26,494 nucleotides of DNA from contig KZ538275.1 of assembly GCA_000934665.2 (NCBI GenBank), forward strand, positions 62,001 to 88,494. The letters are read 5' to 3'. Positions within the stretch are counted from its first letter, which is position 1; every line of letters begins with the position of its first letter. Below the pieces are notes generated by a model. It did no database searches. It was not told the origin of the DNA and saw only the letters and a program-made list of their open reading frames with translations. Shown here one piece after another: positions 21,254 to 25,097 of this stretch. A program made the position numbers and the translations under genes. The stretch comes from Catajapyx aquilonaris. Taxonomy: Eukaryota.

Positions 21254-25097
<3,844 letters not shown>

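Follow-up and report, generated by a model that had tools for sequence, protein, structure and literature searches.

The window analysed here is a stretch of 26,494 nucleotides from Catajapyx aquilonaris (contig KZ538275.1 of assembly GCA_000934665.2), and all positions are counted from its first letter. Near its end, on the minus strand, lies a gene for AMPK alpha, for which we built a ten-exon model from GT-AG borders and homology. The model consists of the following features.

21254..25064, minus strand: AMPK alpha coding region, 10 exons, 529 residues without the candidate exon described below
25064-24953, minus strand: exon 1
24880-24739, minus strand: exon 2
24666-24573, minus strand: exon 3
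24493-24349, minus strand: exon 4
24283-24077, minus strand: exon 5
24007-23567, minus strand: exon 6, ending in PHPERIA (23588-23568, with PHPER at 23588-23574) plus one base
22750..23566, minus strand: intron 6, 817 nt; 253 + 537 nt if the candidate cassette is used
22768..22772, minus strand: CTAAT, a branch-point match 23 nt upstream of exon 7; no other acceptor of the gene has a CTRAY match
22749-22627, minus strand: exon 7, opening with a split Pro codon and then LRERV, and ending in KWHLG
21837-21767, minus strand: exon 8
21696-21534, minus strand: exon 9
21345-21254, minus strand: exon 10

Over its full length the 529-residue model is 85-87% identical to insect AMPK alpha orthologues. 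The translation of exon 6 (P0001) is 88-92% identical to AMPK alpha of Orthoptera, a cockroach, stick insects, planthoppers and damselflies, and it matches residues 228-370 of human alpha-2 with an E-value of 1e-49. The kinase, autoinhibitory and C-terminal domains are present, as is the alpha-linker with PHPER (RIM2). An earlier note on this DNA had named the host gene as AMPK alpha, and both the human alpha-2 match and the identity to insect orthologues bear this out. In protein searches over the ranges 269-2000 and 84-268 residues, no hit was more than 92% identical across most of exon 6; fragments that reach 93-97% span only half of the exon and end in unrelated intron read-through. No database protein near-identical to the 529-residue model was found.

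Most introns of the gene are short: six of the nine are 65-79 nt long, while intron 6 has 817 nt, intron 7 has 789 nt and intron 9 has 188 nt. The last of these contains a candidate exon of its own, at 21418-21444 on the minus strand, which is 27 nt long, phase 1-1 and stop-free and reads GEPEGLSLF. Its acceptor (12 of 16 pyrimidines, with TTAAT at -16) and its donor (GTATGT) resemble real sites. Its use would leave introns of 89 and 72 nt, a size typical of this gene, and it falls between SSEE and TGHH, a region of variable length among homologues. It may be a real exon that is missing from the 529-residue model.

The feature under study lies in intron 6. It is a stretch of 27 nt, read on the minus strand from 23313 to 23287, which the earlier note had proposed as a microexon. 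Together with its surroundings it consists of the following parts.

23287..23313, minus strand: candidate cassette exon, phase 1-1, reading PHLHEGFTG plus a split Ala codon
23314..23333, minus strand: candidate 3' splice site, a 20-nt tract ending in TAG, with 15 of 16 pyrimidines and a TGC at 23328-23326
23281..23286, minus strand: candidate 5' splice site GTGAGT, with GGG on the exon side and a heuristic score of 5/7
23488..23493, minus strand: TGCATG hexamer, 175 nt upstream of the candidate, a chance-level occurrence

The single base that exon 6 leaves over after PHPERIA, at 23567, is a C, followed by GTAAGT. With this C carried over, the 27 nt read as PHLHEGFTG without a stop, and their last G forms an Ala codon with the CC of exon 7; the candidate is thus phase 1-1. 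Its inclusion would turn one Pro into ten residues, a net gain of nine. Like a cassette microexon, it is flanked by AG and GT, does not exceed a length of about 30 nt, keeps the frame and contains no stop. Our reading of the minus strand confirms the coordinates, length, phase, open frame and gain of nine residues that had been proposed, and also the positions of the two cited motifs (TGC at -15..-13 of the acceptor and TGCATG at 23493-23488).

The pyrimidine tract of the candidate acceptor covers 15 of the 16 bases at -20..-5. The closest AG upstream is at -33, which gives an AG-exclusion zone of 33 nt, compared with 17-51 nt at the real acceptors. Neither CTRAY nor YTRAY occurs within 60 nt upstream of the candidate acceptor. 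The missing branch-point consensus speaks against an alternative cassette, yet it is also missing at five of the nine real acceptors.

A search of 21300-23700 against Rfam, at E-values up to 1, gave no match under the candidate, and the region 20900-25200 has no relevant direct or inverted repeat. An origin of the candidate by duplication of the end of exon 6 and its donor was considered and rejected: the local alignment score was 16 against a shuffle mean of 15.7, and 248 of 500 shuffles reached it. An exact 40-nt stretch across the candidate had no match in JGI metagenome contigs. Run X1, whose kind is unknown, yields for 20900-25200 one contig of 241 nt (22934-23174, identical, depth 3.3), which lies wholly inside intron 6 downstream of the candidate. 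It has no joints and leaves the candidate uncovered, and is uninformative on expression. X1 contains a fraction of 0.46 of the sampled words of 20900-25100. By our own arithmetic, exons make up a similar share of these positions, and X1 may therefore be a transcriptome, possibly one whose exon-bearing contigs were filtered out.

To compare the candidate with the real splice sites of the gene we used a heuristic score, which counts pyrimidines at -20..-5 and Y at -3 for acceptors and matches to MAG|GTRAGT for donors; it is not a trained splice-site model. By this heuristic the candidate acceptor scores 15/16, while the nine real acceptors score 8-12. The candidate donor scores 5/7, equal to the best of the nine real donors, which score 4-5. 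The earlier description of both sites as strong is thus well founded on this scale, as the candidate matches or beats all nine real sites of each kind.

At spacings of 3-60 nt, intron 6 contains 134 AG..GT pairs, of which 29 keep the frame and lack a stop, so that an open in-frame cassette is unremarkable by itself; it is the strength of the sites that is remarkable. Only one of these 29 cassettes, the candidate, has strong sites.

To estimate how often such a combination arises by chance, we generated 20,000 first-order Markov copies of intron 6 and searched them for in-frame, stop-free cassettes of 3-60 nt. At the candidate's own values (15 for the acceptor, 5 for the donor) such a cassette appeared in 4 of the 20,000 simulated introns, and at 14/5 in 25 of 20,000. 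At 12/4, values that are typical of the real sites of the gene, it appeared in 2,204 of 20,000. The per-intron chance from this null model is 0.0002-0.001.

Because real sequence has more pyrimidine runs than a Markov chain, we also counted sites in the window itself. With looser cut-offs, 14 acceptor-like and 134 donor-like sites are found in the 52,988 positions of both strands, and about 2 pairs within 3-60 nt are expected and 2 are observed. With strict cut-offs, 0.14 pairs are expected and one, the candidate, is observed. Applying a factor of 1/3 for frame and of about 0.65 for absence of stops (our own arithmetic), the chance for an intron of 817 nt becomes about 0.0005 (strict) to 0.007 (looser). 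By the same kind of arithmetic, roughly 0.01-0.1 chance candidates are expected in all the sense-strand intron sequence of the window.

The splice-site pair exceeds chance, and the motifs that had been cited around it do not. Still, these counts bear directly on the simplest alternative, namely that the candidate is a pseudo-exon formed by chance, in which a pyrimidine run and an AG happen to lie 27 nt before a GTGAGT. It would then be ignored by the spliceosome or used at the level of noise, and only the 529-residue protein would be made. The agreement between expected and observed pairs in the 53 kb of both strands fits this view, and with 0.01-0.1 candidates per window chance cases are to be expected across very many windows. 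The absent branch-point consensus and the chance-level TGC and TGCATG fit it too. Further, strong acceptor-like sites are poor predictors alone, as one of the 14 sits within coding exon 6.

This site, at 23848 on the minus strand, has 15 of 16 pyrimidines and lies among the codons of a ten-residue stretch; it shows that the heuristic over-calls, or is possibly an unused alternative acceptor.

In general, the candidate resembles intronic pseudo-exons in having a consensus-like pair of sites at exon-like spacing, without conservation or transcript support. It differs from typical ones in that both of its sites equal or exceed the real ones in strength and in that it keeps an open reading frame, a combination that is rare by chance under both the Markov null and the window counts. 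In addition, if a strong acceptor 253 nt behind a donor went unused in a gene of mostly 65-79 nt introns, mis-splicing would be expected, and its pairing with an in-frame donor and an open frame is the arrangement that should persist under selection, or at least if it does no harm. We regard the pseudo-exon as quite possible, at a level distinctly below an even chance.

In an HMMER alignment, PHPERI of the window falls on KPHPERM, the last residue of which is number 370 in full-length human alpha-2 (5ISO chain A), and PHPER therefore corresponds to P365-R369. According to PMC10754287, H366 and P367 belong to Regulatory Interaction Motif-2, which contacts AMP at CBS3 of gamma. The equation of PHPER with alpha-RIM2 made in the earlier note is thus supported by the alignment together with these labels.

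In PMC6274893, AMPK is described to sense AMP through the contact of alpha-RIM2 with the nucleotide bound at gamma CBS3, and the Glu and Arg of the motif are needed both for activation by AMP and for protection against dephosphorylation. By the same paper, the AMP mimetic C2 shows the opposite selectivity once alpha-1 and alpha-2 have exchanged their RIM2 regions, and a structure of an alpha-1/alpha-2 RIM2 chimera is listed as 5EZV.

The candidate insert begins three residues after the RIM2 arginine and leaves PHPER intact. By analogy it might change the RIM2-CBS3 contact; the swap shows only that sequence around the motif can matter. The likeness to mammals is that, according to PMC6274893, sequence around RIM2 sets the allosteric response there. 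The differences are that the mammalian variation arises by gene duplication, while here it would arise by splicing if the exon is used, and that the candidate would add residues behind the motif without altering it.

Next, we surveyed 315 homologous arthropod proteins, many of them from transcriptome assemblies, and 214 of these run from the HPER motif through KRAKW. A direct join of the form PHPER-x-x-P-[LFYMVQ]-R is found in 162 of the 214, and 26 have one additional residue. Among the remaining 26, nine have four or more extra residues by our own reading. No five-residue word of the candidate peptide occurs in any of the 315 homologues, all of which come from more distant relatives, none being close. 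This absence of a similar insert is a further point for the pseudo-exon. A candidate of even medium strength was also sought in nine distinct orthologous introns of other hexapods (about 3.9 kb, from ant-, termite-, springtail- and thrips-like metagenome contigs, three of them near-identical) and none was found, a point in favour of the cassette from a sample too small to weigh much.

The survey also bears on the view that the 27 nt are always included, so that the protein would have 538 residues, or 547 with the second candidate (21444-21418). Site strengths above those of the real exons, by the heuristic, agree with a constitutive exon, and there is no direct contradiction because the species' own protein is not in the databases searched. 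Against it, PHPERIA runs straight into P-[LFYMVQ]-R in 162 of the 214 homologues, and the candidate peptide is found in none. A constitutive lineage-specific gain of a 27-nt exon is also rarer than an alternative one, and we consider this reading very improbable.

The same junction varies in length in other arthropods. The variants share phase 1 after PHPERIA and an intact PHPER, and they add 1-19 residues in frame. In leafhoppers, 16 residues are added in an X1 isoform of RefSeq, in a transcriptome-derived UniRef entry and in a cDNA-like contig (L002), with skipping forms alongside. A CT-rich run followed by AATAG closes the leafhopper-type insert of 48 nt (L002, 1029-1076), part of which repeats the beginning of exon 7 (LSRERAL vs PLRERAM); the simplest explanation is an alternative upstream 3' site that arose through a small tandem duplication. 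In the wasp Phymastichus, the four added residues, REYK, equal the first codons of the intron read-through in a related genomic ORF (P0206), and this suggests an alternative 5' site 12 nt downstream.

In cockroaches and termites, isoforms with P and with PA are annotated in Periplaneta and Cryptotermes. Two termite-like contigs (L010 and L014) carry a CAGCAG tandem acceptor (NAGNAG) at exon 7, which accounts for these pairs. In a mayfly isoform and a thrips ORF, a short intron at the junction is kept and read through in frame. Three AMPK alpha sequences of millipedes (L003 1195-1206, P0165 and P0211) have four extra residues, PHL[TV], directly after PHPERIA, and the centipede gene model P0166 has RFTTHLT at the exon 6/7 junction.

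The millipede insert and the candidate have their first three residues, PHL, in common, and in L003 seven of the first eight bases match. We take this resemblance as a weak lead only, because two matching residues among several inserts are not significant. Apart from it, the junction inserts of other arthropods do not resemble the candidate peptide and their mechanisms look different. Homology of the candidate to the Phymastichus or leafhopper inserts was considered and rejected, since these are unrelated sequences that probably stem from alternative splice sites, 5' in the one and 3' in the other. No annotated variant at the junction can be clearly recognised as a separate cassette; judged from their sequences, the variants look like alternative 3' or 5' sites, NAGNAG acceptors or intron retention.

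Taken across these groups, the PHPERIA|P-LRER junction is a recurrent and tolerated site of in-frame length change in arthropods, where no cassette homologous to the candidate is known, and the insertion point proposed in the earlier note coincides with it. The variants thus indicate that insertions here are tolerated.

The earlier note had further assigned the candidate to a neural program governed by eMIC/SRRM and Rbfox. Under this reading it would be a neural eMIC (Srrm234) microexon, possibly with Rbfox input, included only in neurons and retuning AMP sensing through alpha-RIM2. Such eMIC-dependent neural microexons are 3-27 nt long, and the candidate, with 27 nt, lies at the upper bound. 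It also preserves the frame, follows a long pyrimidine tract and has a TGC at -15..-13. However, a TGC within -25..-4 also precedes one of the nine real acceptors, and its chance is about 0.3 by our own estimate. The hexamer TGCATG is no more telling: the window contains it 34 times, where shuffles give 23.2. At this density of about one per 1.6 kb of strand, it is expected about 0.5 times per intron of 817 nt, and one is present upstream of the candidate. By the position rule for Rbfox, moreover, an upstream site would repress and not promote inclusion.

The likeness to eMIC exons can be made more precise from PMC8797185. The neural eMIC microexons of flies and mammals are, like the candidate, very short and frame-preserving with a long pyrimidine tract, and are like it also in lying in a host gene with short introns and in having a UGC within 15 nt of the 3' splice site; enrichment of UGC near this site is reported there. 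The eMIC-dependent exons of flies are further described in that text as having extremely weak 3' splice-site regions, weak 5' sites and long AG-exclusion zones, together with UCUC-rich tracts and strong CUAAY branch points. In contrast, the candidate has, by the heuristic, the strongest sites of the gene, no UCUC or CUCU in the 40 nt before it and no CUAAY (or CTRAY) branch point. AMPK is absent from the main text of that paper, and AMPK, SNF1A and FBgn0023169 are absent from one of its supplements, so that on these two sources AMPK is not among the fly eMIC targets.

In titles and abstracts of the literature we found no report of an AMPK alpha microexon or of splicing at the exon 6/7 site. 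Also in favour of the neural assignment is the location of the insert, three residues behind the RIM2 arginine, in a region whose swap between alpha-1 and alpha-2 alters the response to C2 (PMC6274893). With the TGC and TGCATG at chance and the fly eMIC signature mostly absent, the assignment to these regulators is not supported by the sequence, and we consider a neural eMIC switch improbable. The sequence around the candidate implies no specific regulator, either eMIC or Rbfox.

The explanation that we prefer is that the candidate is a splice-competent, lineage-restricted alternative cassette exon that is included in at least some transcripts, a reading to which we give nearly an even chance. 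The donor of exon 6 would pair with the strong acceptor at 23314, 253 nt downstream, and the GTGAGT donor 27 nt later would pair with the acceptor of exon 7, which bears the only CTAAT branch point of the gene. Intron 6 would in this way be removed in two portions of 253 and 537 nt instead of one of 817 nt. The presence of six introns of 65-79 nt points to splicing by intron definition, and a strong nearby acceptor should therefore be seen by the spliceosome. The product would keep PHPER (alpha-RIM2), the whole C-terminal domain and every known functional element, and it would gain nine residues where the variable part of the alpha-linker begins.

In arriving at this preference, the per-intron chance of 0.0002-0.007 was weighed against a prior of roughly 0.5-1% for a real small cassette per insect intron, which is our own estimate. 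If the neural eMIC switch is included with its small share, use of the cassette in some form becomes somewhat more probable than its absence. That splicing occurs at these sites, and that the protein tolerates the insert or is modulated by it, is our inference; the candidate is, on what its sequence offers, a credible though unproven lineage-specific cassette. A bolder version would be that a regulated 27-nt cassette of an insect lineage gives a second AMPK alpha isoform with altered coupling between AMP (CBS3) and the kinase, as one instance of the wider arthropod pattern of variation at this junction. We think this unlikely.

Mammals tune the RIM2-CBS3 contact by means of the paralogous alpha-1 and alpha-2 genes, and the insect AMPK alpha gene models in our survey appear single. 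Should the cassette be real, one gene could yield two sensor variants through splicing, and a natural insertion mutant would be at hand for the study of how signals pass through the linker. The candidate would then be a lineage-specific cassette microexon in an interesting place. If it is a pseudo-exon, the finding is ordinary and not a feature at all. The length variants at the junction in leafhoppers, a chalcid wasp, cockroaches and termites, mayflies, thrips and myriapods stand independently of the candidate, and in titles and abstracts of the literature we found no description of length variation at PHPERIA|P-LRER.

Elsewhere in the window, ORFs on the minus strand at about 2400-13500 indicate a gene of the terminal uridylyltransferase type: those at 11178-11567 and 5092-5403 match TUTase and MTPAP-like nucleotidyltransferase domains. 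The other strong splice-site pair of the window, 11821-11783 on the minus strand, is found here. Its acceptor opens an ORF of 72 residues beside the TUTase-domain ORFs, and the pair probably represents a genuine exon of the TUTase gene that begins at this acceptor and has a GTGAGT inside. Between the TUTase ORFs, on the opposite strand, lies a reverse-transcriptase ORF (7289-8909, plus strand; RVT_1, E 8e-31), probably a retroelement in an intron of that gene. Finally, fasciclin-domain ORFs (PF02469) at 19216-20790 on the plus strand are part of a gene convergent with AMPK alpha and facing its 3' end.
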